From the sequence record ON470608.1: a stretch of DNA of 46,651 nucleotides. The stretch is one strand, 5' to 3'. The translations under genes and the position numbers were made by a program. The notes under the pieces were generated by a model. The model saw only the letters and a list, made by a program, of their open reading frames with translations. It was not told the origin of the DNA and made no database searches. Positions 1-46,651 of the stretch are shown one piece after another; position 1 is the stretch's first letter, and each line of letters begins with the position of its first letter. Source of the stretch: Escherichia phage vB_EcoS-733R5.

Positions 1-933
1 ATGGACAACGACAAAATTGATCAACACAGCGACGAAATTGAAGTTGAGAGCGAAGAAAAAGAGCGCGGCAAAAAAATAGAAATAGATGAAGACCGACTCC
101 CCTCCCGGGCGATGGCAATTCATGAGCATATCCGCCAGGATGGTGAAAAAGAGCTGGAACGCGACGCAATGGCGCTACTGTGGTCAGCCATTGCGGCGGG
201 TCTGTCGATGGGCGCTTCGTTACTGGCAAAAGGGATATTTCAAGTCGAACTGGAAGGTGTGCCGGGCAGCTTCTTGCTGGAGAATCTCGGTTATACCTTT
301 GGTTTTATTATCGTCATTATGGCCCGCCAGCAATTATTTACCGAAAATACCGTGACTGCGGTACTACCCGTCATGCAAAAACCGACAATGAGCAACGTCG
401 GCTTACTTATGCGATTATGGGGCGTCGTGCTGCTGGGTAATATTCTCGGGACAGGTATTGCTGCATGGGCATTTGAATATATGCCTATCTTCAATGAAGA
501 AACTCGCGATGCATTTGTCAAAATCGGCATGGATGTGATGAAGAACACCCCCAGCGAGATGTTTGCCAACGCGATCATTTCCGGCTGGCTGATCGCCACT
601 ATGGTTTGGATGTTTCCTGCTGCGGGTGCGGCAAAGATTGTGGTGATTATATTGATGACCTGGCTTATTGCACTGGGTGACACCACCCACATCGTTGTCG
701 GTTCTGTTGAAATCCTCTATCTGGTGTTTAACGGCACGCTGCACTGGAGCGATTTCATCTGGCCCTTCGCACTACCTACTTTAGCCGGGAACATCTGCGG
801 CGGCACCTTTATCTTCGCGTTAATGAGTCATGCACAGATTCGTAACGACATGAGCAACAAGCGTAAAGCAGAAGCACGCCAAAAAGCAGAACGTGCGGAA
901 AACATTAAGAAAAATGATAAAAACCCAGCATAA
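1..933 (+). CDS. yfdC: Formate/nitrite transporter (FNT) family inner-membrane protein YfdC
   Basis: 310-aa ORF with multiple hydrophobic helices; recognised from memory as the E. coli YfdC protein that neighbours argW. ATG falls at window position 1. Confidence 0.75.
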   Translation: MDNDKIDQHSDEIEVESEEKERGKKIEIDEDRLPSRAMAIHEHIRQDGEKELERDAMALLWSAIAAGLSMGASLLAKGIFQVELEGVPGSFLLENLGYTFGFIIVIMARQQLFTENTVTAVLPVMQKPTMSNVGLLMRLWGVVLLGNILGTGIAAWAFEYMPIFNEETRDAFVKIGMDVMKNTPSEMFANAIISGWLIATMVWMFPAAGAAKIVVIILMTWLIALGDTTHIVVGSVEILYLVFNGTLHWSDFIWPFALPTLAGNICGGTFIFALMSHAQIRNDMSNKRKAEARQKAERAENIKKNDKNPA

Positions 934-1008
934 ATGGCGAGGGTTTAAGCAATCGAGCGGCAGCGTACTTACCCCGCAGTCCATTAGCGGGTATACTCAT
1001 GCCGCATT

Positions 1009-4229: not shown

Positions 4230-6183
4230 TGATTGATATCTGACTGACAGTGCATGATCTGCCCTCTGATAAACGTCGCGGTAGGGATACCCGTTACCGG
4301 GTACCCCCCGCACAGATCCCGGCGTGCGCTATTCACGCACCGGGCTCCTGCCTTGGGTGTCTGGCGGTGAACCGCTCCACAGGCCATGGATGCAGAACCC
4401 GAACCTTCGGCAGCCATACGGCTGCCAGTCTGTTTGCTTTCGTCCATGTCGTATCATCCTGCTGGCTCCTGCGCCTCAGCGCCCGTCGCCAGAGGTCTGT
4501 TACGTATATCCTGAACTTCCGCATCATGGGATAGTTGCCCGGGACTGAGTGGTAGTTCAGGTATCCCTGAACCACTCTCCTGAGCCATTTTCCCTGTTCG
4601 GGGATTGAGTAATGCCAGCGCTTTCGTAGTCCGTCCTTGATCGCTTTCAGTGTCGCCGTCATCCTGTCCCGGCGTGTCTTTCGTATCAGCATGAACCTGC
4701 CACTACGATCTTTCCCACTGATATGCGTGAACCCGAGGAAGTTGAACGTTTCTGGTTTACCTTTTCCCCTGCTGGCGCGGTTTTCGGCTGCGAAGCGGCC
4801 GAACTCCGTCAGTCGGGTTTTCTTCGGATGTACCGTGAGTCCGAACTCCTTCAGTCTGCGCTGCATGGCTATACGAAAGCATTGAGCGTCGATTCGCTTG
4901 TCGAACCCGATGACTATGTCATCTGCGTATCTGACCATGACCACATTGCCTGTGGCATGGCGGCGTCGCCACTGATGCGCCCACAGATCGAAGACATAGT
5001 GGAGGTAGATGTTTGCCAGCAGCGGCGAGATAACCGCACCCTGTGGGGTGCCTTCCTCCGATGCCCGCCATTCTCCTTCCTCTGAGGTCCCGGCTGTGAG
5101 CCACTTTCGTATGAGCCTGATTACCCTCTGGTCGCCGATTCTGTGTTCTATGAACCTGATTAGCCATTCATGGCTTACCTTGTCGAAGAACTGACTGATA
5201 TCGGCATCCAGTACCCAGTTTACATTGGTCCGAACCAGCCCTGTGGCCAGTGCGTCCAGCGCATTGTGCTGGTTTCGCCCGGGTCTGAACCCGTATGAAA
5301 ACCCCATAAAGTCATTTTCGTAGACTGCATTCAGGATCTTAACCAGCGCATACTGGACGATTTTGTCCTCCAGTGAGGCGATGCCGAGCGGGCGCTGTTT
5401 TCCATCCGCTTTCGGGATGTAGTGCCGCCTGCCGGGCTGAGCCCTGTAACTACCCTGATGAAGCCTCCGGTGCAGATCTGCTATGTTGACCTTCAGGTTT
5501 TCGGCGTAGTCCTTCCACCTGACACCATCAACTCCGGCAGCCGCTTTCCTGCTCAGGGAGAGGAATGCGTTCTCCAGTGCCTCTGCTGTCAGGAGGTGGA
5601 ACAATGCGGTAAACCGTTCTTTCTTCCGCTGCTTCGCAGCTTCCCGCACGCGTGACAGCCTCTGTGACATACTTTCCCGGCTCTGCGTCCGGCGCATGTG
5701 TGGCTGTTCCGCGTTTCCCTTGGCCCCGCTCCTTCGCTCCACTGACTCCGCTCCTTGCGGATTGTTCGCCAGATTCGCAGCTACTATGAGCGAGTCCGAC
5801 TTCTCCTCTCCGTACATCACCGGCTTCGGCTCCTCGCCTTCCCGGTGCGGGCCATCTCCGGCACTGGCAGATGGTCAGAGGGGAGATCTCCCGGTTCCCG
5901 CGTAAAGATCGTATTGACATGCCAGGGTCTCAGACCCCGCCGGGTCCATATGGCACTCGCAGTAACGCACCCTATGATGTTGCCTTCCGTAAACAGTACA
6001 ACGTCGGCACCCGGGAATTTAATATACATTTCGTGGCTCAATGGCTGGCCTGTCAACACCCCTGTCAACGCTTCGCCCCATACCTCACGGTATACAACGC
6101 ATGACTCGGGGACCCTGTGGATTGCTGGTCCTTCAATGGTCGGGGACTTTCACCCCTTGATCTTTACCGGTCTCCCGGCGCAC
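4230..6183 (-). mobile_element. Group II intron (3' boundary approximate)
   Basis: The minus strand begins GTGCGCCGGGAGACCGG (5' consensus GUGCG) at 6183, contains the RT/maturase ORF, and has a domain-V-like hairpin with a GTAA tetraloop at about 4278..4311. Confidence 0.7.
4333..5820 (-). CDS. Group II intron-encoded reverse transcriptase/maturase (LtrA-like)
   Basis: 495 aa with RT motifs (FxGxxxGxxxSPLLANIYL, YADD active site) followed by a maturase X-like domain. Confidence 0.85.
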   Translation of the reverse strand: MMYGEEKSDSLIVAANLANNPQGAESVERRSGAKGNAEQPHMRRTQSRESMSQRLSRVREAAKQRKKERFTALFHLLTAEALENAFLSLSRKAAAGVDGVRWKDYAENLKVNIADLHRRLHQGSYRAQPGRRHYIPKADGKQRPLGIASLEDKIVQYALVKILNAVYENDFMGFSYGFRPGRNQHNALDALATGLVRTNVNWVLDADISQFFDKVSHEWLIRFIEHRIGDQRVIRLIRKWLTAGTSEEGEWRASEEGTPQGAVISPLLANIYLHYVFDLWAHQWRRRHATGNVVMVRYADDIVIGFDKRIDAQCFRIAMQRRLKEFGLTVHPKKTRLTEFGRFAAENRASRGKGKPETFNFLGFTHISGKDRSGRFMLIRKTRRDRMTATLKAIKDGLRKRWHYSIPEQGKWLRRVVQGYLNYHSVPGNYPMMRKFRIYVTDLWRRALRRRSQQDDTTWTKANRLAAVWLPKVRVLHPWPVERFTARHPRQEPGA

Positions 6184-22167: not shown

Positions 22168-22767
22168 TTACGCGTTAAGAAGGGTCAGCAGGCGCTCACG
22201 CGCCATTCGTTGATTAATGGCGTTCTTTAGCGCACCGCTGTCGCGCGCCTCCTGCCAGGCTTTCATCGATCGGACGCCGGAGTCGGCCTCCTGATATGCG
22301 GGATAAGTCACCGGACTGACATCAAACAGCCGGGAAAACTTCGATATTTCACGAATAACGATCCCTTCATCGTCCTGGTACCAATTTTCACCGTCATGGG
22401 ATACCCGGAAGGCAAAAGATGACTGGTTAATGTCACCGCGCATCATCGGCGCCAGCACCAGATCGCGGATAGTTTGCGTATCCGGAGCTGTAATGTCGTA
22501 ACGCAGGCCGCGCTCATCGACAGACAGGGATAGCGTCCCGGCAGCGCTCCGTCCGAGAATAAAGTTGGGGTCATGGTTAAACAGCCCGCGAACATCATCA
22601 TTCAGCACATCGTCAAATGCTCCGGGCTTGATGATTTCACGGAATCCCCACAGGGGTTCAGAACGGCTGTTGAACACCGAGCCATAGCCCAGAATGCGGG
22701 TAGGTTCATCGGTGCGTTGCTCGGCTCTGACCTCCCCGCTGTAACAGCGCGTTTCACGGTCATTCAT
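22168..22767 (-). CDS. Prohead protease, HK97 family
   Basis: 199-aa ORF between portal and capsid; S78-type context. Confidence 0.75.
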   Translation of the reverse strand: MNDRETRCYSGEVRAEQRTDEPTRILGYGSVFNSRSEPLWGFREIIKPGAFDDVLNDDVRGLFNHDPNFILGRSAAGTLSLSVDERGLRYDITAPDTQTIRDLVLAPMMRGDINQSSFAFRVSHDGENWYQDDEGIVIREISKFSRLFDVSPVTYPAYQEADSGVRSMKAWQEARDSGALKNAINQRMARERLLTLLNA

Positions 22768-23986
22768 TGGGCTTTTCCTCGTCGGTTTTAGGTGCCTTAA
22801 AATCGTCTGCGGGGTTCGCGGCGTTAACGCTCACCAGCATTTCATCCAGGCCATCTACCGGATTCATGTCTTCGAAGGCTCGCGCTTCATTGCGGCTCAT
22901 CCAGCCATCAGTGATCGCAAAGTGGTAGAACTGAGCACGTTCCTGCGGGGTCCCGCGTAGCAGGCCTGTCAGGTTAAACCTGACGTAATATCCGGCGGCC
23001 AGTTCAGCACGGGTGAACAGACGGCGATTGAGTTCCTGTTCCCAGTTCGTTACCCACGGCATGATCGTGTAGCGGACAAACTGAATGGCCTGCTGCGTAA
23101 TATTTGAGAAAGTGGCTTTTTCGAGATCGTTAATCATGTGCGCCGGTACATTAAATATCCCGGCAATCATCGACCGATTCAGCTTCGACATATCAATGAT
23201 CTGGGCATCAACCGGGGAAACGGTGAGCGCTTTGTAATCCAGCTCTGCCGGGAGAAGCATTGTTTTATTCTCCTGGCTGCGCAAAGCAGCTGTAGCTTTT
23301 TGCCACATGCTTTTTAAACGCCCCCAGCTTTCTTCATTCAGCTGGCTTTTCACCGAAATAATGCCAGCGGGTCGCGCATTACCGTTGAAGAATGAACTGG
23401 TATAAGCCTGCCCACTCATCCCCATTCCTATCGTCTCGGCATGCTGCATAATTGGGCTAAGCCCCATTTTCTGGTTGTTACCCAGCGCCCGGATATGCAC
23501 CATATCGTCGGGATTGACGGCAAACGCCCCCTCTTCGTTGTAAACGCCATAGGTATACCGACCACCCGTGTTAAGCAGTGTCGTTTCCCAGGGCATGCAG
23601 CATTCCAGCCCGGAAACTTCACCACGACGGGAACGCTTCACCCAGGTGTAACCATTCCCCCAGCCCAAAATATGACGCTGTTTTAGCTCACGCCACTTAT
23701 AGCTGGTCTGCCACATATTCGGCTCATCGTGAACCAGGTAAAACACAGGGTGATCGCGGGCAGCTTCAACCTTGTTATTGGTTTTCCGCATAACATGCAG
23801 TGGCATCTGAGCGATATTCGAAGAGATAACGTAAATACAGGCATACACCGCAGCCAGCTTCATCGCCGTTTGCGGGCTGACAAATACGTCCTGGGCAAAC
23901 ACGTTATCTGTTTCTGCCGACTCACTCGTGATCGGCGTAGCCGGGTTTTCCAGTGGTTCACTGCGAAAAAGAGCATCAAGCAGCAT
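22760..23986 (-). CDS. Portal protein, HK97 family
   Basis: 408-aa ORF following the large terminase gene. Confidence 0.8.
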   Translation of the reverse strand: MLLDALFRSEPLENPATPITSESAETDNVFAQDVFVSPQTAMKLAAVYACIYVISSNIAQMPLHVMRKTNNKVEAARDHPVFYLVHDEPNMWQTSYKWRELKQRHILGWGNGYTWVKRSRRGEVSGLECCMPWETTLLNTGGRYTYGVYNEEGAFAVNPDDMVHIRALGNNQKMGLSPIMQHAETIGMGMSGQAYTSSFFNGNARPAGIISVKSQLNEESWGRLKSMWQKATAALRSQENKTMLLPAELDYKALTVSPVDAQIIDMSKLNRSMIAGIFNVPAHMINDLEKATFSNITQQAIQFVRYTIMPWVTNWEQELNRRLFTRAELAAGYYVRFNLTGLLRGTPQERAQFYHFAITDGWMSRNEARAFEDMNPVDGLDEMLVSVNAANPADDFKAPKTDEEKPNE

Positions 23987-28043: not shown

Positions 28044-28337
28044 TTAACAGTCAGCATCTGGCCGGGCAACTGCGCGGCATGCCCACATACAGGCTTCCTG
28101 CATTTTGGTGCGCGCGAGTGCCTGGCAGCGCATAGCTTCATCAATCTCCCGTGCCTGCTCAGCGCTTAACATTGCCGGTCCATTGCGGACAGCCAACAAT
28201 TCACCTCGCTCTGTATCGAGCAGACTGCAAAAATGCCGGCTGACACCTTTGAGGCGGTTCATCCGCTCAATGTCGCCATCGGTTAATGTGCGGTAGCCTT
28301 TTACAGTGCTGCCATCCTGCGGTTTTGCTTCACTCAT
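28044..28337 (-). CDS. Hypothetical phage protein
   Basis: About 97 aa from the ATG at 28337; Cys-containing C-terminus. Confidence 0.4.
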   Translation of the reverse strand: MSEAKPQDGSTVKGYRTLTDGDIERMNRLKGVSRHFCSLLDTERGELLAVRNGPAMLSAEQAREIDEAMRCQALARTKMQEACMWACRAVARPDADC

Positions 28338-29098: not shown

Positions 29099-29634
29099 AG
29101 GACACGCTCCTTAACCCAGCCGTAGAGAAAATCCTCGTTGGCTTCGCGGCCCTCAGCTAGTTCGAGATATCTGGCACCCTGGCTGCAGTTCAGCGCACGC
29201 AACAGAACCTGTTCACCCTCTTTCCCGCGGGCGGAAAGATATCCCTTAAGCGCAGTGATGGTTCGGGGGCCAATGGCTCCATCCGGGATAAGATCGGGAT
29301 AAAGCTTCCCGCGGACATTCATTGCCGTCAGCCAGCGCTGGAAAAACTTACTGGCAACCGATGGCCCCATGTTCACCCCAGTGTCGCAAAGCTCATCTGC
29401 CAGTAACGTAGACAAACTCGCCACCTGGTCGAACCGGGGGCCAGTCCAGTAATCGCTCAGCAGGATTTGCTTTGCTGTTTCCCTGGGCAGGTTTCGCATA
29501 TCACCGGTGTAGCCATGTGCGCGAGCTGTGGTTTGCGTGATGCCCCAGCGGGTTGGCCCTCCTTTATCAGAGGGGTGATCGACATAACCACCCTCTTTTC
29601 CGAGGATCCCCTCGATAATCTGGTCTGCTGTCAT
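29095..29634 (-). CDS. Endolysin (GH108-like N-terminus with a peptidoglycan-binding region)
   Basis: EGGYVDHPSDKGGPTRWGIT is the characteristic GH108 motif; follows the holin. Confidence 0.75.
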   Translation of the reverse strand: MTADQIIEGILGKEGGYVDHPSDKGGPTRWGITQTTARAHGYTGDMRNLPRETAKQILLSDYWTGPRFDQVASLSTLLADELCDTGVNMGPSVASKFFQRWLTAMNVRGKLYPDLIPDGAIGPRTITALKGYLSARGKEGEQVLLRALNCSQGARYLELAEGREANEDFLYGWVKERVL

Positions 29635-29942
29635 TGTGCTTTCACTCCGGTGATTCGTTCCCAGAAATACGTGAGCGCTACGGAACCCATAGCACCACTA
29701 ATACCGGCAGTAGCCAGTATCATGTAAATACTCAGGCCACCTTCAATGCTGATGAGCCCACCAATAACCCCGGTAAAAGCCGAAACCACAATCTGCGCAA
29801 AAGCATTTATCCAGCTCCATTTTGCTTTGCCCTGCTTCACATCCATCAGGAATCGGACAAGGCCGCCCCAGCCAGCAATGATCAGCAGAGCCAGCCAGGT
29901 GATTCCGGCCATGCTTTCTTTGTCTTGCATATGCTTTGCCAT
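29631..29942 (-). CDS. Holin with a dual-start motif
   Basis: 103 aa with transmembrane helices and an MAKHM N-terminus; first gene of the lysis cassette. Confidence 0.7.
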   Translation of the reverse strand: MAKHMQDKESMAGITWLALLIIAGWGGLVRFLMDVKQGKAKWSWINAFAQIVVSAFTGVIGGLISIEGGLSIYMILATAGISGAMGSVALTYFWERITGVKAQ

Positions 29943-30045: not shown

Positions 30046-30082
30046 AAAAAAGAAAGGCCACCCGTAGGCAGCCTTTGAATGC
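30046..30082 (-). terminator. Candidate late-leader terminator (tR'-like) upstream of the holin
   Basis: Minus strand AAAGGCTGCCTACGGGTGGCCTTT followed by CTTTTTTT. Confidence 0.4.
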
Positions 30083-30185
30083 TGTAAGCCTCTGCAAATT
30101 GAGGCCTAGGTATCGTTTTAAGTCCGTGGCATAGAAACCACTCTTAACATGCTACATAATAAAATGCGGACCGCGCAAAACTTTT

Positions 30186-30220
30186 TTGATAAATTAAAGG
30201 TCCACAGCATATTAAGGTTC
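30186..30220 (+). promoter_or_regulatory. Candidate sigma70 promoter for the cargo cassette
   Basis: ttgata, a 17-bp spacer, then atatta, about 35 bp upstream of the cassette SD. Confidence 0.35.
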
Positions 30221-30252
30221 AATTGTTAACTATTAGTGTACTAAGGAATGTT

Positions 30253-31194
30253 ATGACGAGTGCAGTTGCGGTAAAAAAACCCAAAAAACTACGAATTGGC
30301 TTCTATACGAGTAGTTCTGGAACCATTCGAAGCAACTCTGTTGCCAAAGCTGCGATCGATAGCCTTTACAGCACTTGCGTGAATGTAACTAACAATCATT
30401 TCGATACTACATATAAAAATAAAAAGTTGAAAATTGCGTTTATAAATAAAGACACTAATGCCAAATATTATTTTGGCTATATGTCTTGCTCAAGAGAAGA
30501 GTACCTCCTTCCTTATATTGGCGATGAGCACTGGAAAGAACACAACATCCCATTGGATGATAAAAAATACATTGTCGAGCGTACTTATTTTTTATATTAC
30601 TATGAAAGCGACATTTTGATCCTTACGCAAAACCATCTTGGTCCAAAGGAATCTGATCTCGCTTATCTTCTTTATAGCCAAAGTGGACAGCCTGGAAACA
30701 ATTTTTCTTTCCAAGCCATTTGGAAGAAAGAAAGTATTAAAGAACTTCTCGAAACAGGAAGTACACTTAGAAGCTGCGAACTTATCCTAGCTGCTCCACG
30801 AAACTTCGATGTGACTAATTATCAGTTAGATAGTTCTTTTTCGAAAGAACTATTAAATATGATGATTGGTCTTGGTGGTACGCATTTAAAAATCAATCTT
30901 AGAGGGAGAGCTTCTGGAAGAGTTAAAGTTAAAGGCTACCTTTCGGATGTGGTAAAAGATGGTATTAAAGAATTATTAGAAAAAATACCGAATATTGTCA
31001 AAAAAGCAGCAGTAACACAGCCAAAAAACACTGCTGAGCAGAGTCTGCTTGAACAGGTTCTCATCTCGGAAAAAAATATACATACCGTAAACGGCTATGG
31101 CACAGATAGCGATGTGCTCCAAGCGATGATTTCTGCTAAAATTGATAATAATGGTTACCTTATGCAGTACGACATAAGCATTAAGAAGGTATAG
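30253..31194 (+). CDS. Cargo protein A: soluble ~313-aa protein (possible RexA-like sensor)
   Basis: AT-rich gene antisense to the late operon; aggaa SD; N-terminal GFYTSSSG; Lys-rich; no confident family assignment. Confidence 0.55.
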   Translation: MTSAVAVKKPKKLRIGFYTSSSGTIRSNSVAKAAIDSLYSTCVNVTNNHFDTTYKNKKLKIAFINKDTNAKYYFGYMSCSREEYLLPYIGDEHWKEHNIPLDDKKYIVERTYFLYYYESDILILTQNHLGPKESDLAYLLYSQSGQPGNNFSFQAIWKKESIKELLETGSTLRSCELILAAPRNFDVTNYQLDSSFSKELLNMMIGLGGTHLKINLRGRASGRVKVKGYLSDVVKDGIKELLEKIPNIVKKAAVTQPKNTAEQSLLEQVLISEKNIHTVNGYGTDSDVLQAMISAKIDNNGYLMQYDISIKKV

Positions 31195-31197
31195 TTT

Positions 31198-31641
31198 ATG
31201 TTATTGAGATATATAGCAAATATAATAGGAAGCATTTTTTTGACATACTTGTTATTGAAGTATGTTCCTTTAATGCAACATAATGACATTCTCACATCAG
31301 CAGGGGTCATCTCTACTGTTTCAGGAATCTTGTTTGGTTTTGTGCTTGCTACTATTTCGATTTTCAGTGCAGCTAGCGCCAATTCAAATGGGGTCTTGAA
31401 AGCTTTAAAAAACAACAACATACTTCAAGGTATAGTAACTAATTTATTAGCTGCTGGAGCGACACTAATTACAGCATGCTTAATTTCACTTATTGCCATG
31501 TTTGCCAGCGAGCAATTAATTTACAATGACAAAAAAATAGAGTTCATATTCATCATTCAATCATTATCACTATTGATAGTAGCAATTATAATGTTTGGGT
31601 TTACTTGGCGTAAAATTAATTGGATTTTACCATATATTTAA
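31198..31641 (+). CDS. Cargo protein B: ~147-aa membrane protein with about four TM helices (possible RexB-like effector)
   Basis: Starts 3 nt after gene A with an aagaagg SD; four hydrophobic segments; followed by a terminator. Confidence 0.55.
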   Translation: MLLRYIANIIGSIFLTYLLLKYVPLMQHNDILTSAGVISTVSGILFGFVLATISIFSAASANSNGVLKALKNNNILQGIVTNLLAAGATLITACLISLIAMFASEQLIYNDKKIEFIFIIQSLSLLIVAIIMFGFTWRKINWILPYI

Positions 31642-31664
31642 AAGGGCGTCCGTGCCCTTTTTTT
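31642..31664 (+). terminator. Rho-independent terminator of the cargo cassette
   Basis: aagggcgtccgtgccc followed by ttttttt immediately after the gene B stop; it abuts the Q stop codon on the opposite strand. Confidence 0.7.
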
Positions 31665-32026
31665 CAATCCATATCTAATCGTACGTCTAACATAGACAAA
31701 CAACCATCTATGAAACCTTCAGCCATCTGTATTTCAATACGTATCAGCTTCTCGTCCTTCTTTCGCGCTTTAGCAATTTTCCGTTTCGAGATACCATATA
31801 GATAATGCGCAACCAACAGCGAATGCTCATAGGGCTTACGTTTTTGAAGACGCGCTAAGCATCCCTCAATAATAAGAGCGTCATCGTCAGTACATGATTG
31901 ACGGGATTTGCTTGTTGGGGGAAGAAGTCCTTTGAAACCAGCGGCTATTGATGAGTAATCGACTCCGGAACTATCATTCGCAGCCCATCCACCCCAACGC
32001 TCTAAAACTATCTGAATATCACGCAT
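31664..32026 (-). CDS. Late-gene antiterminator Q (phage 82 Q-like)
   Basis: MRDIQIVLERWGGWAA...SIAAGFKGLL...LLVAHYLYG...AEGFIDGCLSMLDVRLDMD resembles the phage 82/21-type Q proteins as recalled; ggaga SD; the last gene before the lysis region. Confidence 0.7.
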   Translation of the reverse strand: MRDIQIVLERWGGWAANDSSGVDYSSIAAGFKGLLPPTSKSRQSCTDDDALIIEGCLARLQKRKPYEHSLLVAHYLYGISKRKIAKARKKDEKLIRIEIQMAEGFIDGCLSMLDVRLDMD

Positions 32027-32040
32027 GTTTTCTCCACTGT

Positions 32041-33021
32041 TCATGCTAAGACGCCGATTGCCAGCGCACGATCCAGAAATCGAAACAGCAGCTCCAGCTG
32101 TGAGCCGTGCTTCTCCTCAAATGCCACGGTGTCAGCGTGCAACTCGTCGTGATGCGCTCTGCAAAGCGGCAACACAAACAGGTCATGCGCTTTTGTTCCC
32201 ATTCCACCTTGCCCGTGGCCTATCAGGTGATGGGGATCATCTGCTTGTTTGTTACAGCAGACACACGGCTGGGACTTAACCCAGCGCGTCCAGCTCTCGT
32301 TTACCCAGCGGCGGCGCTTTGGTCGCAGCATGAATGATTCCGGCGTTTCAGGATCTACGCGAAGACCGAGAATCTTTTTCTGCACCACTTCGCTCGCCGC
32401 TGGCTCCGGCACAATATCGCTCTCCTTCATCACCGGCTGATGCTTAATTTCCGGCAATCGCAGGGCTTTTCGGGCCAGCGATTCAGGGATGACGTGCGCC
32501 AGATTGTTTATAACCAGCCACCAGCACAACTCGGGGATCGTCAGTTGATGGTCTTCGTTGAACCCCAGCTGTGAGCGGATGACCGTTATCAGCCAGGATA
32601 CCAGGTTCTCACGCGCAATGCCTGCCAGCGTCTCTGTGTACTGATCACGCACCAGGTTATCGCAGGCCCAGCAAAGGCGGATGCTGCCAGGCTCATGCCG
32701 GAACAACGTAAAATTTTCGCTGTGCCATGAGCCGTGGGGATACTGGCATTCAAAACGACGCTCCAGCTCGGCCTCCAGCGAGCTGATACCACCCGCGCGT
32801 AGAATGACGTCTTTGTTTTCGAAGACTGGCTTCAAAACCGGGTCTTCTGCCAGTGGCTGCGTGGCGGGAGGGATGGCTCCGGTTGCGTAGTCGCTGTATT
32901 TTTCCGGTGCAGGCTCAATCAGTACCCGCCCTCTCCTGAACATCGGCATGAGATCAGCACCTGGGCGAAGAAGAACAACGCCCATGCGTGGGGCAATCTC
33001 AGGGGTTAGTAGTGCTCTCAT
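32041..33021 (-). CDS. HNH-motif protein (DUF968-like) in the nin-region position
   Basis: C-terminal CVCCNKQADDPHHL...LCRAHHDELH, a Cys/His-rich HNH-like motif; located between rusA and Q. Confidence 0.5.
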   Translation of the reverse strand: MRALLTPEIAPRMGVVLLRPGADLMPMFRRGRVLIEPAPEKYSDYATGAIPPATQPLAEDPVLKPVFENKDVILRAGGISSLEAELERRFECQYPHGSWHSENFTLFRHEPGSIRLCWACDNLVRDQYTETLAGIARENLVSWLITVIRSQLGFNEDHQLTIPELCWWLVINNLAHVIPESLARKALRLPEIKHQPVMKESDIVPEPAASEVVQKKILGLRVDPETPESFMLRPKRRRWVNESWTRWVKSQPCVCCNKQADDPHHLIGHGQGGMGTKAHDLFVLPLCRAHHDELHADTVAFEEKHGSQLELLFRFLDRALAIGVLA

Positions 33022-40887: not shown

Positions 40888-42056
40888 TTATCTTAACTTA
40901 TTTACTTGCCAAAATATTTTGTCCGCGTACTTTTCGTATGCTTCCTTCTGCTCCACCAGCCAATCGTGTTTGTTATAAACCGCCATCACTCCCCCTAACT
41001 CATGCCCCAGCATCTTTTCAGTGACGTGAGGCATAACCCCTTCCCCTGATAAATTCGTCACCAGCGAACGCCTGAAGTCATGTGTTCGCCACTCTGGTAT
41101 ATCAATTTTATCCCTTAATTTTTTCATATAGAGATTTGCTGACGAGCGATCTATAGGCTTGTCGAGTTCCTGGCCGGGAAACAGAACATCATTTCCAGCA
41201 TTGAGGAGCCTTTCAACAAAAGGTTTCACCTGGTCAAACACCGGGCGACGGATTACGTTACCCATCTTTGAATGTTCTGCTGGAGTCGTCCAGATAAGAT
41301 CATCCATATTGAACTCACTGGCAGTAGCAAGGCGCAGCTCTGATAGCCTGGCTCCCCAAAGCAAAAGCAGCTGATGAAGCACCTTGTTGGAGGTAACGAT
41401 CTTGTTGTTCTCCAGCGCCAGCCAGATTTTAGCCAACTCGGTATACGTGAGAACACGGCTACCCACATCAGGTTTTTTTCCAATGGTCTTAACACTTAGC
41501 TTCAGGACTTCGCACGATGGGATCAACTGGCGACTGATACACCAGTTCATGACGGAACGTAGCTGCAGAAGAAGCACCCTGGCCTTTTTGCTGTTCTTCT
41601 TTTCCTGCTTATCAAAGAAACGCACCCATGCCGAAACAGGAATGTTTACTACCGGAGCGTCCGGGAATTCTGTGTACATCGTGTTGTACACAACTGACTT
41701 GTACAGCGTCTGAGTGTTCGGCTTCAGCGTTTCAACATACTTGCCCCACCACTGATCCAGGCACTCTTTGAGAGTCAGCTCGCCATCTTCTTTGGCAAAA
41801 TAATTTTTCGGGTTTAGCCCCTTGAGGTACAATTCGCGCATCTCACCGACGACAACGCGCGCCTCCTTGAGAGACATAGCGGGATAGCGGCCAATGGAGA
41901 GGCGAACGGGCTTACCGTTCCAGCGATAACGAAACTGGAATGTGATCGTGCCTGTGGGAGTTATGCGTACACTCAGCCCGTCACCATCTGTGACCTCAGC
42001 TGCGCCGCTGTATGGCTTAGCATTGATGCTACGGAGTTTGGTATCACTAAGGGCCA
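40888..42056 (-). CDS. Tyrosine integrase (P4-like family), likely GTG start
   Basis: N-terminal ALSDTKLR...PYSGAAEVTDGDGLSVRITP and C-terminal HDFRRS...VMAVYNKH are integrase hallmarks; there is no ATG near the conserved N-terminus, so the GTG at 42056 is proposed. Confidence 0.75.
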
Positions 42057-42242
42057 CGGCTCTGTATCCTGTACACACTGAAATTCTGCATTCTGTACTC
42101 AATGTGTACGCAATGGCAAGTGAACGAAGTGATTTTCTAAGCGAATCGATGCGAACGGAAAGGAAATAAAAGGAATGAAATGCTTGATGGTACGGGGAAT
42201 GATAGGATAACATGCAACACAAGCTGAACGCTTAAAAATCAG

Positions 42243-42317
42243 TAAGTTCTATGTCCCCTTAGTTAAATGGATATAACGAGCCCCTCCTAAGGGCTAATTG
42301 CAGGTTCGATTCCTGCA
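42243..42317 (+). tRNA. argW: tRNA-Arg (anticodon CCU)
   Basis: 75-nt cloverleaf-compatible sequence with a GTCCCCT/AGGGGAC acceptor stem, CCU in the anticodon loop, a GTTCGATTC T-loop and a 3' CCA. Confidence 0.9.
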
Positions 42318-42768
42318 GGGGACACCAGATACCCTTCAAACGAAATCTACCTTCACCCCGTAAAAGATGGGTTTGGCAGCACACTTGCCTTATATCTACT
42401 CATTTTTACTGCAACAGGTTGAAATCTCAGCACTGTCAGAAAGCGCTGATGACTAAACAGCCCTGGGCCGGGCGATGTAACCATCACACAGAATCCTGAT
42501 AGCGAAATATGGCGTGACTCGATACTTCACTCCGCAATGCATTCCTTGATGAATTCGCAGGACCGTGATACACGGGACAGGTCACTGAATGACGACAATG
42601 TCCTGGAAATCAGCGAACCGCGCATCTGAAGTACATTTGAGCGACTGTACCAGAACATGAATGAGGCGTTTGGATTAGGCGATTATTAGCAGGGCTAAGC
42701 ATTTTACTATTATTATTTTCCGGTTGAGGGATATAGAGCTATCGACAACAACCGGAAAAAGTTTACGT

Positions 42769-44016
42769 CTATATTGCTGAAGGTACAGGCGTTTCCATAA
42801 CTATTTGCTCGCGTTTTTTACTCAAGAAGAAAATGCCAAATAGCAACATCAGGCAGACAATACCCGAAATTGCGAAGAAAACTGTCTGGTAGCCTGCGTG
42901 GTCAAAGAGTATCCCAGTCGGCGTTGAAAGCAGCACAATCCCAAGCGAACTGGCAATTTGAAAACCAATCAGAAAGATCGTCGACGACAGGCGCTTATCA
43001 AAGTTTGCCACGCTGTATTTGAAGACGGATATGACACAAAGTGGAACCTCAATGGCATGTAACAACTTCACTAATGAAATAATCCAGGGGTTAACGAACA
43101 GCGCGCAGGAAAGGATACGCAACGCCATAATCACAACTCCGATAAGTAATGCATTTTTTGGCCCTACCCGATTCACAAAGAAAGGAATAATCGCCATGCA
43201 CAGCGCTTCGAGTACCACCTGGAATGAGTTGAGATAACCATACAGGCGCGTTCCTACATCGTGTGATTCGAATAAACCTGCATAAAAGACAGGAAAAAGT
43301 TGTTGATCAAAAATGTTATAGAAAGACCACGTCCCCACAATAAATATGACGAAAACCCAGAAGTTTCGATCCTTGAAAACTGCGATAAAATCCTCTTTTT
43401 TTACCCCTCCCGCATCTGCCGCTACGCACTGGTGATCCTTATCTTTAAAACGCATGTTGATCATCATAAATACAGCGCCAAATAGCGAGACCAACCAGAA
43501 GTTGATATGGGGACTGATACTAAAAAATATGCCGGCAAAGAACGCGCCAATAGCATAGCCAAAAGATCCCCAGGCGCGCGCTGTTCCATATTCGAAATGA
43601 AAATTTCGCGCCATTTTTTCGGTGAAGCTATCAAGCAAACCGCATCCCGCCAGATACCCCAAGCCAAAAAATAGCGCCCCCAGAATTAGACCTACAGAAA
43701 AATTGCTTTGCAGTAACGGTTCATAAACGTAAATCATAAACGGTCCGGTCAAGACCAGGATGAAACTCATACACCAGATGAGCGGTTTCTTCAGACCGAG
43801 TTTATCCTGAACGATGCCGTAGAACATCATAAATAGAATGCTGGTAAACTGGTTGACCGAATAAAGTGTACCTAATTCCGTCCCTGTCAACCCTAGATGT
43901 CCTTTCAGCCAAATAGCGTATAACGACCACCACAGCGACCAGGAAATAAAAAAGAGAAATGAGTAACTGGATGCAAAACGATAGTACGCATTTCTGAATG
44001 GAATATTCAGTGCCAT
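42769..44016 (-). CDS. cscB: Sucrose:H+ symporter (LacY-like MFS permease)
   Basis: 415 aa with 12 predicted TM helices; LacY-like N-terminus; adjacent to cscK and cscA. Confidence 0.8.
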   Translation of the reverse strand: MALNIPFRNAYYRFASSYSFLFFISWSLWWSLYAIWLKGHLGLTGTELGTLYSVNQFTSILFMMFYGIVQDKLGLKKPLIWCMSFILVLTGPFMIYVYEPLLQSNFSVGLILGALFFGLGYLAGCGLLDSFTEKMARNFHFEYGTARAWGSFGYAIGAFFAGIFFSISPHINFWLVSLFGAVFMMINMRFKDKDHQCVAADAGGVKKEDFIAVFKDRNFWVFVIFIVGTWSFYNIFDQQLFPVFYAGLFESHDVGTRLYGYLNSFQVVLEALCMAIIPFFVNRVGPKNALLIGVVIMALRILSCALFVNPWIISLVKLLHAIEVPLCVISVFKYSVANFDKRLSSTIFLIGFQIASSLGIVLLSTPTGILFDHAGYQTVFFAISGIVCLMLLFGIFFLSKKREQIVMETPVPSAI

Positions 44017-44087
44017 AATTACCTGCCTGTCGTTAAAAAATTCACGTCCTATTTAGAGATAAGAGCGACTTCGCCGTTTACTTCTCA

Positions 44088-45002
44088 CTATTCCAGTTCT
44101 TGTCGACATGGCAGCGCTGTCATTGCCCCTTTCGCCGTTACTGCAAGCGCTCCGCAACGTTGAGCGAGATCGATAATTCGTCGCATTTCTCTCTCATCTG
44201 TAGATAATCCCGTAGAGGACAGACCTGTGAGTAACCCGGCAACGAACGCATCTCCCGCCCCCGTGCTATCGACACAATTCACAGACATTCCAGCAAAATG
44301 GTGAACTTGTCCTCGATAACAGACCACCACACCTTCTGCACCTTTAGTCACCAACAGCATGGCGATCTCATACTCTTTTGCCAGGGCGCATATATCCCGA
44401 TCGTTCTGTGTTTTTCCACTGATAAGTCGCCATTCTTCTTCCGAGAGCTTGACGACATCCGCCAGTTGTAGCGCCTGCCGCAAACACAAGCGGAGCAAAT
44501 GCTCGTCTTGCCATAGATCTTCACGAATATTAGGATCGAAGCTGACAAAACCTCCGGCATGCCGGATCGCCGTCATCGCAGTAAATGCGCTGGTACGCGA
44601 AGGCTCGGCAGACAACGCAATTGAACAGAGATGTAACCATTCGCCATGTCGCCAGCAGGGCAAGTCTGTCGTCTCTAAAAAAAGATCGGCACTGGGGCGG
44701 ACCATAAACGTAAATGAACGTTCCCCTTGATCGTTCAGATCGACAAGCACCGTGGATGTCCGGTGCCATTCATCTTGCTTCAGATACGTGATATCGACTC
44801 CCTCAGTTAGCAGCGTTCTTTGCATTAACGCACCAAAAGGATCATCCCCCACCCGACCTATAAACCCACTTGTTCCGCCTAATCTGGCGATTCCCACCGC
44901 AACGTTAGCTGGCGCGCCGCCAGGACAAGGCAGTAGGCGCCCGTCTGATTCTGGCAAGAGATCTACGACCGCATCCCCTAAAACCCATACTTTGGCTGAC
45001 AT
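44088..45002 (-). CDS. cscK: Fructokinase (ROK/pfkB-like sugar kinase)
   Basis: 304 aa with VLGDAVVD and GAGDAF sugar-kinase motifs. Confidence 0.8.
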   Translation of the reverse strand: MSAKVWVLGDAVVDLLPESDGRLLPCPGGAPANVAVGIARLGGTSGFIGRVGDDPFGALMQRTLLTEGVDITYLKQDEWHRTSTVLVDLNDQGERSFTFMVRPSADLFLETTDLPCWRHGEWLHLCSIALSAEPSRTSAFTAMTAIRHAGGFVSFDPNIREDLWQDEHLLRLCLRQALQLADVVKLSEEEWRLISGKTQNDRDICALAKEYEIAMLLVTKGAEGVVVCYRGQVHHFAGMSVNCVDSTGAGDAFVAGLLTGLSSTGLSTDEREMRRIIDLAQRCGALAVTAKGAMTALPCRQELE

Positions 45003-45107
45003 TTTTTTCCCTTAAATTCATCTGAGTTACGCATAGTGATAAACCTCTTTTTCGCAAAATCGTCATGGATTTACTAAAACATGCATATTCGATCACAAAA
45101 CGTCATA

Positions 45108-45183
45108 GTTAACGTTAACATTTGTGATATTCATCGCATTTATGAAAGTAAGGGACTTTATTTTTATAAAAGTTAACGTTAAC
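45108..45183. promoter_or_regulatory. Divergent csc promoter region with two GTTAACGTTAAC palindromes (candidate CscR operators)
   Basis: Perfect 12-bp palindromes at 45108..45119 and 45172..45183 in the AT-rich cscK/cscA intergenic region. Confidence 0.5.
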
Positions 45184-45217
45184 AATTCACCAAATTTGCT
45201 TAACCAGGATGATTAAA

Positions 45218-46651
45218 ATGACGCAATCTCGATTGCATGCGGCGCAAAACGCCCTAGCAAAACTTCATGAGCACCGGGGTAACACTTTCTATCCCCATTT
45301 TCACCTCGCGCCTCCTGCCGGGTGGATGAACGATCCAAACGGCCTGATCTGGTTTAACGATCGTTATCACGCGTTTTATCAACATCATCCGATGAGCGAA
45401 CACTGGGGGCCAATGCACTGGGGACATGCCACCAGCGACGATATGATCCACTGGCAGCATGAGCCTATTGCGTTAGCGCCAGGAGACGATAATGACAAAG
45501 ACGGGTGTTTTTCAGGTAGTGCTGTCGATGACAATGGTGTCCTCTCACTTATCTACACCGGACACGTCTGGCTCGATGGTGCAGGTAATGACGATGCAAT
45601 TCGCGAAGTACAATGTCTGGCTACCAGTCGGGATGGTATTCATTTCGAGAAACAGGGTGTGATCCTCACTCCACCAGAAGGAATCATGCACTTCCGCGAT
45701 CCTAAAGTGTGGCGTGAAGCCGACACATGGTGGATGGTAGTCGGGGCGAAAGATCCAGGCAACACGGGGCAGATCCTGCTTTATCGCGGCAGTTCGTTGC
45801 GTGAATGGACCTTCGATCGCGTACTGGCCCACGCTGATGCGGGTGAAAGCTATATGTGGGAATGTCCGGACTTTTTCAGCCTTGGCGATCAGCATTATCT
45901 GATGTTTTCCCCGCAGGGAATGAATGCCGAGGGATACAGTTACCGAAATCGCTTTCAAAGTGGCGTAATACCCGGAATGTGGTCGCCAGGACGACTTTTT
46001 GCACAATCCGGGCATTTTACTGAACTTGATAACGGGCATGACTTTTATGCACCACAAAGCTTTTTAGCGAAGGATGGTCGGCGTATTGTTATCGGCTGGA
46101 TGGATATGTGGGAATCGCCAATGCCCTCAAAACGTGAAGGATGGGCAGGCTGCATGACGCTGGCGCGCGAGCTATCAGAGAGCAATGGCAAACTTCTACA
46201 ACGCCCGGTACACGAAGCTGAGTCGTTACGCCAGCAGCATCAATCTGTCTCTCCCCGCACAATCAGCAATAAATATGTTTTGCAGGAAAACGCGCAAGCA
46301 GTTGAGATTCAGTTGCAGTGGGCGCTGAAGAACAGTGATGCCGAACATTACGGATTACAGCTCGGCACTGGAATGCGGCTGTATATTGATAACCAATCTG
46401 AGCGACTTGTTTTGTGGCGGTATTACCCACACGAGAATTTAGACGGCTACCGTAGTATTCCCCTCCCGCAGCGTGACACGCTCGCCCTAAGGATATTTAT
46501 CGATACATCATCCGTGGAAGTATTTATTAACGACGGGGAAGCGGTGATGAGTAGTCGAATCTATCCGCAGCCAGAAGAACGGGAACTGTCGCTTTATGCC
46601 TCCCACGGAGTGGCTGTGCTGCAACATGGAGCACTCTGGCTACTGGGTTAA
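45218..46651 (+). CDS. cscA: Sucrose-6-phosphate hydrolase / invertase (GH32)
   Basis: WMNDPNG and FRDP motifs with an EC catalytic pair (MWECPDF); agga SD 9 nt before the MTQSRL start. Confidence 0.85.
   Translation: MTQSRLHAAQNALAKLHEHRGNTFYPHFHLAPPAGWMNDPNGLIWFNDRYHAFYQHHPMSEHWGPMHWGHATSDDMIHWQHEPIALAPGDDNDKDGCFSGSAVDDNGVLSLIYTGHVWLDGAGNDDAIREVQCLATSRDGIHFEKQGVILTPPEGIMHFRDPKVWREADTWWMVVGAKDPGNTGQILLYRGSSLREWTFDRVLAHADAGESYMWECPDFFSLGDQHYLMFSPQGMNAEGYSYRNRFQSGVIPGMWSPGRLFAQSGHFTELDNGHDFYAPQSFLAKDGRRIVIGWMDMWESPMPSKREGWAGCMTLARELSESNGKLLQRPVHEAESLRQQHQSVSPRTISNKYVLQENAQAVEIQLQWALKNSDAEHYGLQLGTGMRLYIDNQSERLVLWRYYPHENLDGYRSIPLPQRDTLALRIFIDTSSVEVFINDGEAVMSSRIYPQPEERELSLYASHGVAVLQHGALWLLG

Follow-up and report, generated by a model that had tools for sequence, protein, structure and literature searches.

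What is encoded by two genes that run against the direction of late transcription just where a prophage passes from its antiterminator to its lysis genes? We address this question for a stretch of 46,651 nucleotides (nt) from Escherichia phage vB_EcoS-733R5 (ON470608.1), referred to below as the window, which is the reverse complement, at 100% identity, of ON470622 (Escherichia phage vB_EcoS-716R3), a record of a prophage with host flanks. In the window the Q, holin and lysozyme genes are all on the minus strand, and two adjacent open reading frames (ORFs) between Q and the holin gene, ORF1 and ORF2, are both on the plus strand (Table 1). The pair is a real, conserved and mobile two-gene module, and it appears to be a new branch, at the level of sequence, of the known RexAB kind. 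By analogy with that kind, we consider it probable that the cassette is an exchangeable piece of cargo whose two components together exclude phages by abortive infection. This reading draws on the fold of ORF1, the topology of ORF2, the strict linkage of the two genes, purifying selection, a foreign base composition, a cargo hotspot and a position behind the CI repressor gene in one relative.

The two proteins and their relation to RexA and RexB

The product of ORF1 passes the gathering threshold of the Pfam family DUF6731 (PF20505; 42.4 bits against a cut-off of 27, E-value 7.8e-11) and is named a DUF6731 family protein in RefSeq. It matches phrog_7651, has no hydrophobic segments by hydropathy and finds no match in NCBIfam; PADLOC, NCBIfam and PHROGs give no functional name for either protein of the pair. 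The AlphaFold2 model of ORF1 (built on 40 homologs; predicted local distance difference test score, pLDDT, 82) has the strand and helix order of RexA, a globular domain split by an inserted dimerization domain that has four strands and bears a helix, which is the architecture described for RexA (PMC11077077). We rejected the label “portal (connector) protein” that ORF1 carries in GenBank record ON470622, as no portal family is matched. The true portal gene is a separate one next to the terminase (22665–23891 of that record), and the label is therefore a misannotation.

Is the likeness to RexA visible in sequence as well as in the fold? BLASTP of ORF1 and ORF2 against lambda RexA and RexB gives nothing significant. 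Profile searches of the PDB sequences, with narrow and broad ORF1 profiles and with an ORF2 profile, do not reach RexA (8TWQ), and scans with lambda RexA and with the Pseudomonas phage AUS531phi protein as queries return near-identical loci only. An exhaustive ORF1 profile search collects 229 relatives at E-value <= 0.001, mostly 280–310 amino acids (aa) long, and DUF6731 is matched by 129 of the 146 relatives that were aligned or collected. Compared by hhalign, the 146-sequence DUF6731 profile and the RexA profile align over 249 co-linear columns (ORF1 15–308 against RexA 3–271; P 7.9e-4), a match that pairs IGFYTSS with NGFYATY and contains a GP..SDL..L core common to both; a narrow ORF1 profile finds only a 46-column patch in the 5-sequence RexA profile (P 0.048). 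We conclude that DUF6731 probably belongs to the RexA superfamily as a remote branch, outside the RexA Pfam family.

Four hydrophobic segments are found by hydropathy in the product of ORF2 (approximately residues 1–20, 31–62, 78–109 and 112–140), and in size and helix positions the protein nearly superimposes on RexB (3–30, 42–69, 80–111 and 112–139). Its AlphaFold2 model shows four long helices. Like RexB, an inner-membrane protein of about 144 aa, it has four predicted transmembrane (TM) helices and is encoded directly after a RexA-like gene. It matches phrog_8552 but no curated family, and residues M26, H28, G43–F48 and W137–R138 are invariant among its relatives. The second-best BFVD match of the ORF2 model is a 165-aa protein of mycobacteriophage Sbash, of the same length as Sbash gp31, a RexB-like effector that has been validated (PMC6426596).

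A link in sequence between ORF2 and RexB comes from a bridging set, A9, made up of the small genes downstream of distant DUF6731 members. This set matches the ORF2 family on one side (probability 98.8%, E-value 8e-17) and RexB on the other (probability 69%, P 4.5e-5; 72 columns, 9–81 against 12–84), the latter match spanning TM1, the H.D loop, TM2 and the basic central loop. As controls, alignments in reverse yield P 0.3, and among 60 column shuffles the best value is P 0.021. The RexB hidden Markov model (HMM) scores three of the partners at 16.0, 13.5 and 13.0 bits; among about 1200 controls, shuffled or reversed, no score exceeds 10.9. Homology of ORF2 with RexB through such intermediate sequences appears plausible, though not established. 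An earlier note on this DNA had likened the pair to RexA/RexB, partly from a GFY motif near the N-terminus of the first protein. That motif does align with the GFY of RexA in the profile comparison, and the likeness is supported for ORF1; for ORF2 it is weaker, consisting of a matching size and four-helix layout and of a moderate homology through intermediates. The pair does not pass the Pfam and PADLOC models of RexA and RexB. Run as the note had suggested, PADLOC 2.0 assigns no family to either protein from any of its protein models (Kiwa, CBASS/Pycsar TM effectors and others) at E-value <= 1, although models of RexA and RexB are among them.

Do the two genes travel as a unit? Every one of the 89 loci scored with both profiles has an ORF2 homolog behind the ORF1 homolog on the same strand, usually at a distance of no more than about 30 nt. 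The adjacency recurs in 8 of 8 further complete loci of distant relatives, and in three more distinct loci of metagenomic origin (five contigs) the small gene downstream is picked up by the ORF2 profile. The top BFVD matches of the ORF1 and ORF2 models belong to one and the same metagenomic phage. In phage cdtI, orf54/orf53 are the same cassette (ORF1 87% identical); compared with this allele, the ratio of nonsynonymous to synonymous change (pN/pS) is approximately 0.10 for ORF1 and 0.24 for ORF2 with synonymous sites saturated, so both genes are real and under purifying selection. We also observe that ORF1 is truncated or frameshifted in loci L040, L043–L047, L051 and L063, and that ORF2 is full length in all of these except L051, which suggests that the proposed sensor gene decays occasionally in viral contigs.

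The settings of the pair are diverse. A convergent Q gene of the same family starts 17–44 nt after ORF2 in 72 of 80 viral loci; in one further viral locus a Q homolog lies 125 nt from an ORF2 that is truncated there. This placement is kept where ORF1 identity is only 42–45% and Q identity typically 80–93%. Other copies lie elsewhere. In Klebsiella the pair is part of a primase-bearing integrative element, beside an Imm_superinfect gene. In a 14.6-kb Vibrio element of the Vinavirales (Tectiliviricetes; L108, PQ189356 1389–2896), it adjoins the integrase gene, with ORF1 37% identical, which indicates that the cassette moves between viral realms. In AUS531phi it directly follows the CI repressor gene on the same strand, which is the cI-rexA-rexB layout of lambda.

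Layout of the cassette and of the Q–holin site

Table 1. Features at and around the ORF1–ORF2 cassette (window coordinates)
Feature	Position	Strand	Description
ORF1	30253–31194	+	313 aa from ATG, soluble; DUF6731 family, RexA-like fold; proposed DNA-binding sensor
ORF2	31198–31641	+	147 aa, four-helix membrane protein, RexB-like size and layout; proposed membrane effector
Upstream region of cassette	30082–30252	+	two weak sigma-70-like candidates; holds 60-nt island 30137–30196
Bidirectional intrinsic terminator	31640–31664	both	hairpin and T-run between the convergent ORF2 and Q stops
Terminator-like hairpin	30053–30076	-	upstream of holin gene, left edge of exchangeable unit; terminator scan, -15.5 kcal/mol
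Antiterminator Q gene	31664–32044	-	convergent with cassette; Pfam PF06530, E 8e-54; stop codon is right boundary
Holin gene	29631–29942	-	lysis gene left of cassette

The earlier note had described an AT-rich unit of two genes between Q and the holin gene, on the strand opposite to late transcription, encoding a soluble protein of about 313 aa and a four-TM protein of about 147 aa, with Shine-Dalgarno sequences, 3-nt spacing, a clean terminator and a candidate promoter of its own. These features are confirmed by our analysis, most weakly in the case of the promoter. GenBank and RefSeq give identical coordinates for both ORFs; an alternative version of ORF1 would have 323 aa from a TTG start at 30223. 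Three nt separate the stop codon of ORF1 (TAG, 31192–31194) from the ATG of ORF2 at 31198, and Shine-Dalgarno-like motifs are present for ORF1 (AAGGA, 30243–30247) and ORF2 (AAGAAGG, 31183–31189). The guanine-plus-cytosine (GC) content of the cassette is 34.9%, compared to 50.2% for the window and 54% for the holin–lysozyme region. A hairpin (31640–31661) followed by a T-run occupies the 22-nt gap separating the stop codons of ORF2 and Q; its folding energy is -10.9 kcal/mol on one strand and -11.4 kcal/mol on the other (z about -3.7). Folding is equally good on either strand, which makes the terminator bidirectional; a consensus scan does not see it because its GC core is short. As for the promoter, candidate sites do exist (TTGATA-16-CATATT, 30186–30213; TAGAAA-17-CATAAT, 30132–30160), but each matches only 9 of 12 consensus positions, and promoter-like sites are not clearly enriched in the region (11 found against 6.2 +/- 2.5 expected).

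Is the site itself prone to exchange? Compared with a related viral contig (L056), the flanks of the cassette, through 30081 and again beginning at 31666, are 92–94% identical, whereas the cassette itself is 66% identical or unalignable. On the left, flank homology to related prophages stops at 30074–30081. The edges of the exchangeable unit are the hairpin upstream of the holin gene, which is probably a tR'-type terminator that Q reads through, and the Q stop codon. In E. coli p10A (NZ_CP049081, L111 4678–6553), the same backbone carries at the Q–holin site an unrelated antisense cargo of three genes (366 aa, unknown; 105 aa, DUF4325, STAS-like; 153 aa, unknown), for which Pfam gives no function beyond DUF4325; this cargo is a candidate for an uncharacterized defense system. 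Since related prophages have either a diverged allele or unrelated cargo at this site, it is a swappable hotspot, and the earlier note's view of the pair as cargo between Q and the lysis genes is borne out by the recombination breakpoints at its edges and by the other cargo found there.

A GC-rich hairpin of differing sequence stands right after ORF2 in 10 of the 13 cassette alleles listed (L052 and L004 are ambiguous). Upstream of ORF1, the 60-nt island of Table 1 shows 80% identity between alleles whose remaining sequence is 66% identical or unalignable; it is kept where Q is conserved and lost where the C-terminus of Q differs. The island may be a minus-strand late promoter/qut rather than a promoter of the cassette. 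Lying between the cassette and the holin gene, such a late promoter would let late transcription proceed without crossing the cassette.

Host flanks are present at both ends of the window (1–934, yfdC; 40888–46651, with an integrase gene, tRNA-Arg-CCT and the csc sucrose-utilization genes), so the window is a prophage region excised in silico and not a packaged genome. Among 5426 complete E. coli genomes, the cassette region is found at 99.9–100% identity in 11, and some allele of the cassette is detectable in 169 (up to about 3%), of which 36 hold most of it. Two further genes of the prophage deserve mention. Close downstream of the lysis genes, a 97-aa gene (28044–28337, minus strand) matches the Pfam Acb2/Tad1 hairpin domain (PF24729, E-value 1e-17), a family of anti-CBASS/anti-Thoeris sponges; a counter-defense gene and a defense-like cassette would then coexist in one prophage. 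A reverse transcriptase annotated in GenBank as retron-type (4334–5818, minus strand; ON470622 40834–42318) lies downstream of a 4-kb tail-fiber-like gene, with a fragment of a Pin-type invertase nearby. It could belong to a retron defense system or to a diversity-generating retroelement acting on the fiber.

What the pair may do

How would such a cassette act? A promoter belonging to the pair would drive its transcription in the lysogen, antisense to the phage late genes, and a terminator at either end would insulate it. ORF1, a cytoplasmic protein of RexA/RdgC-type fold, would serve as a DNA-binding sensor that triggers ORF2, a RexB-like four-helix inner-membrane protein; the triggered ORF2 would depolarize or permeabilize the membrane, and the infected cell would be arrested before the invader completes its cycle. 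We infer DNA binding, signaling from ORF1 to ORF2, membrane damage and phage protection by analogy with lambda RexAB, Sbash gp30/31 and Pseudomonas putida RexABpp. Experiments have shown phage defense by sequence-divergent pairs of a RexA-fold protein and a four-TM protein (PMC6426596; PMC12894663).

A number of results weigh against this proposal. The Pfam RexA family (PF15969) is matched at E-value <= 10 by none of 40 ORF1 relatives and at E-value <= 1 by none of 146, and the PADLOC model that finds lambda RexA at 9e-110 does not match ORF1. The hhalign probability of the DUF6731–RexA alignment is only 25%, with a shallow RexA profile of 5 sequences. On the side of the membrane protein, neither ORF2 nor any of 32 relatives matches the Pfam (PF15968) or PADLOC models of RexB, and a direct comparison of the ORF2 family with the RexB profile is negative (probability 0.3%); the link through A9, at 69% probability, is limited to the N-terminal half. 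In Foldseek searches of BFVD, lambda RexA and RexB are absent from the top 50 for either ORF model, and comparison of the ORFs by hhalign with the single sequences of Sbash gp30 and gp31 (KP027201) detects no similarity. The promoter is the weakest element of the cassette. A full-text literature search for “DUF6731” found no paper, and no phenotype is known for any DUF6731 pair. Finally, lambda RexA has a role outside defense, biasing the CI/Cro switch toward lysis, an effect that RexB antagonizes (PMC11077077); the fold alone is therefore no proof of defense.

This last point leads to another explanation, in which the pair mainly serves the life cycle of the phage itself by tuning commitment to late gene expression beside Q. 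The regulatory role documented for lambda RexA (PMC11077077) would fit, as would the convergent Q gene that accompanies the pair in 72 of 80 viral loci even at 42–45% ORF1 identity, and the 60-nt island between cassette and holin that is conserved along with Q. We nevertheless regard this explanation as unlikely, given that the cassette lies away from Q in the Klebsiella element, the Vibrio Vinavirales element and the Pseudomonas phage, that the Q–holin site of a related prophage holds unrelated cargo, that a terminator hairpin stands between cassette and Q in 10 of the 13 alleles listed, and that low GC is a mark of foreign cargo. Might the pair instead be a prophage-stabilizing toxin and antidote, or a membrane superinfection-exclusion device, with ORF2 toxic or entry-blocking, ORF1 its regulator and no abortive-infection sensing? 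In favor of this are the strict coupling of a soluble protein with a small four-helix membrane protein and, in one context, an Imm_superinfect gene next door. The soluble partner, however, has the DNA-binding fold of RexA and not an antitoxin fold; no toxin–antitoxin family of PADLOC or Pfam is matched; and in the RexABpp system of P. putida an excess of the RexA-like protein triggers effector toxicity instead of neutralizing it (PMC12894663). We find this possibility quite improbable.

The fold of ORF1 also raises the question of RdgC. On this view ORF1 would modulate recombination in the manner of RdgC, and the small membrane protein ORF2 would be unrelated to it and co-transcribed by chance. 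The score of ORF1 against RexA is far above that against RdgC (12.5 versus 6.9), Pfam RdgC is not matched, and, from host to host and in two viral realms, the membrane partner is never missing, for which chance co-transcription is no explanation; this account seems to us very improbable indeed.

If the RexAB-type reading is correct, what might the effector be? One speculative answer is that RexB-type effectors, ORF2 included, could be remote relatives of the stator-type proton channels MotA/ExbB/TolQ and assemble as ion-conducting rings of five subunits that a RexA-like DNA clamp would gate. Sub-threshold matches to MotA_ExbB (PF01618) occur in 18 of 32 ORF2 relatives (10–14 bits, short of the gathering cut-off of 22.9), between residues 28–107, which form the TM2–TM3 hairpin, and profile positions 45–118. 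RexBpp, as modeled with AlphaFold 3, is best as a pentamer (PMC12894663). Several RexB homologs bear legacy “ExbB” names in NCBI; no NCBIfam model backs this naming, and no ExbB-type NCBIfam match is found. We hold the stator idea to be distinctly doubtful, but if true it would offer a concrete structural mechanism for RexB and would link Rex to Zorya-like stator defenses.

The RexAB-type reading would give a testable function to the Pfam family DUF6731 and to its unnamed membrane partner, in a pair that ranges over Enterobacterales prophages (including phage cdtI), a Klebsiella integrative element, a Pseudomonas phage and a Vibrio Vinavirales element. It would extend the reach of the Rex family past the sight of the Pfam RexA/RexB and PADLOC HMMs. 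The bridging sequences would tie divergent four-helix effectors to RexB, whose mechanism is still unresolved decades after rII exclusion was described. For this prophage lineage, the Q–holin junction emerges as a defense/cargo hotspot with precise exchange boundaries.

Comparison with known systems

Kiwa (KwaA/KwaB) combines a four-helix membrane protein with a DNA-binding soluble protein of about 300 aa. We excluded a Kiwa identity for the window pair, for which PADLOC gives no match. RdgC (2OWL) is a much weaker structural match to ORF1, has no membrane partner and stands in a chromosomal housekeeping context. Lambda RexA/RexB (PF15969/PF15968; RexA structure 8TWQ) differ from the window pair in sequence, with approximately 13% identity over the structural alignment to RexA and both HMMs unmatched, and in location: lambda rexAB is in the immunity region and is co-transcribed with cI, whereas the window pair is between Q and the holin gene, is encoded on the opposite strand and has a putative promoter and terminator to itself.

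RexABpp of P. putida prophage P1 (PP_5643/PP_5644), here compared by its published description, lies near a CI-like repressor and is larger, with a RexA-like protein of approximately 37.5 kDa including the His tag and an effector of more than 181 aa (PMC12894663). Mycobacteriophage Sbash gp30 has 372 aa and a DUF4747 motif, not DUF6731, and the hosts are actinobacteria. As in the window pair, a soluble RexA-like protein is followed by a four-helix membrane protein in Sbash gp30/gp31 and in gp44/gp43 of Gordonia phage CarolAnn, and for these pairs prophage-mediated defense has been demonstrated and a loss of membrane potential proposed (PMC6426596).
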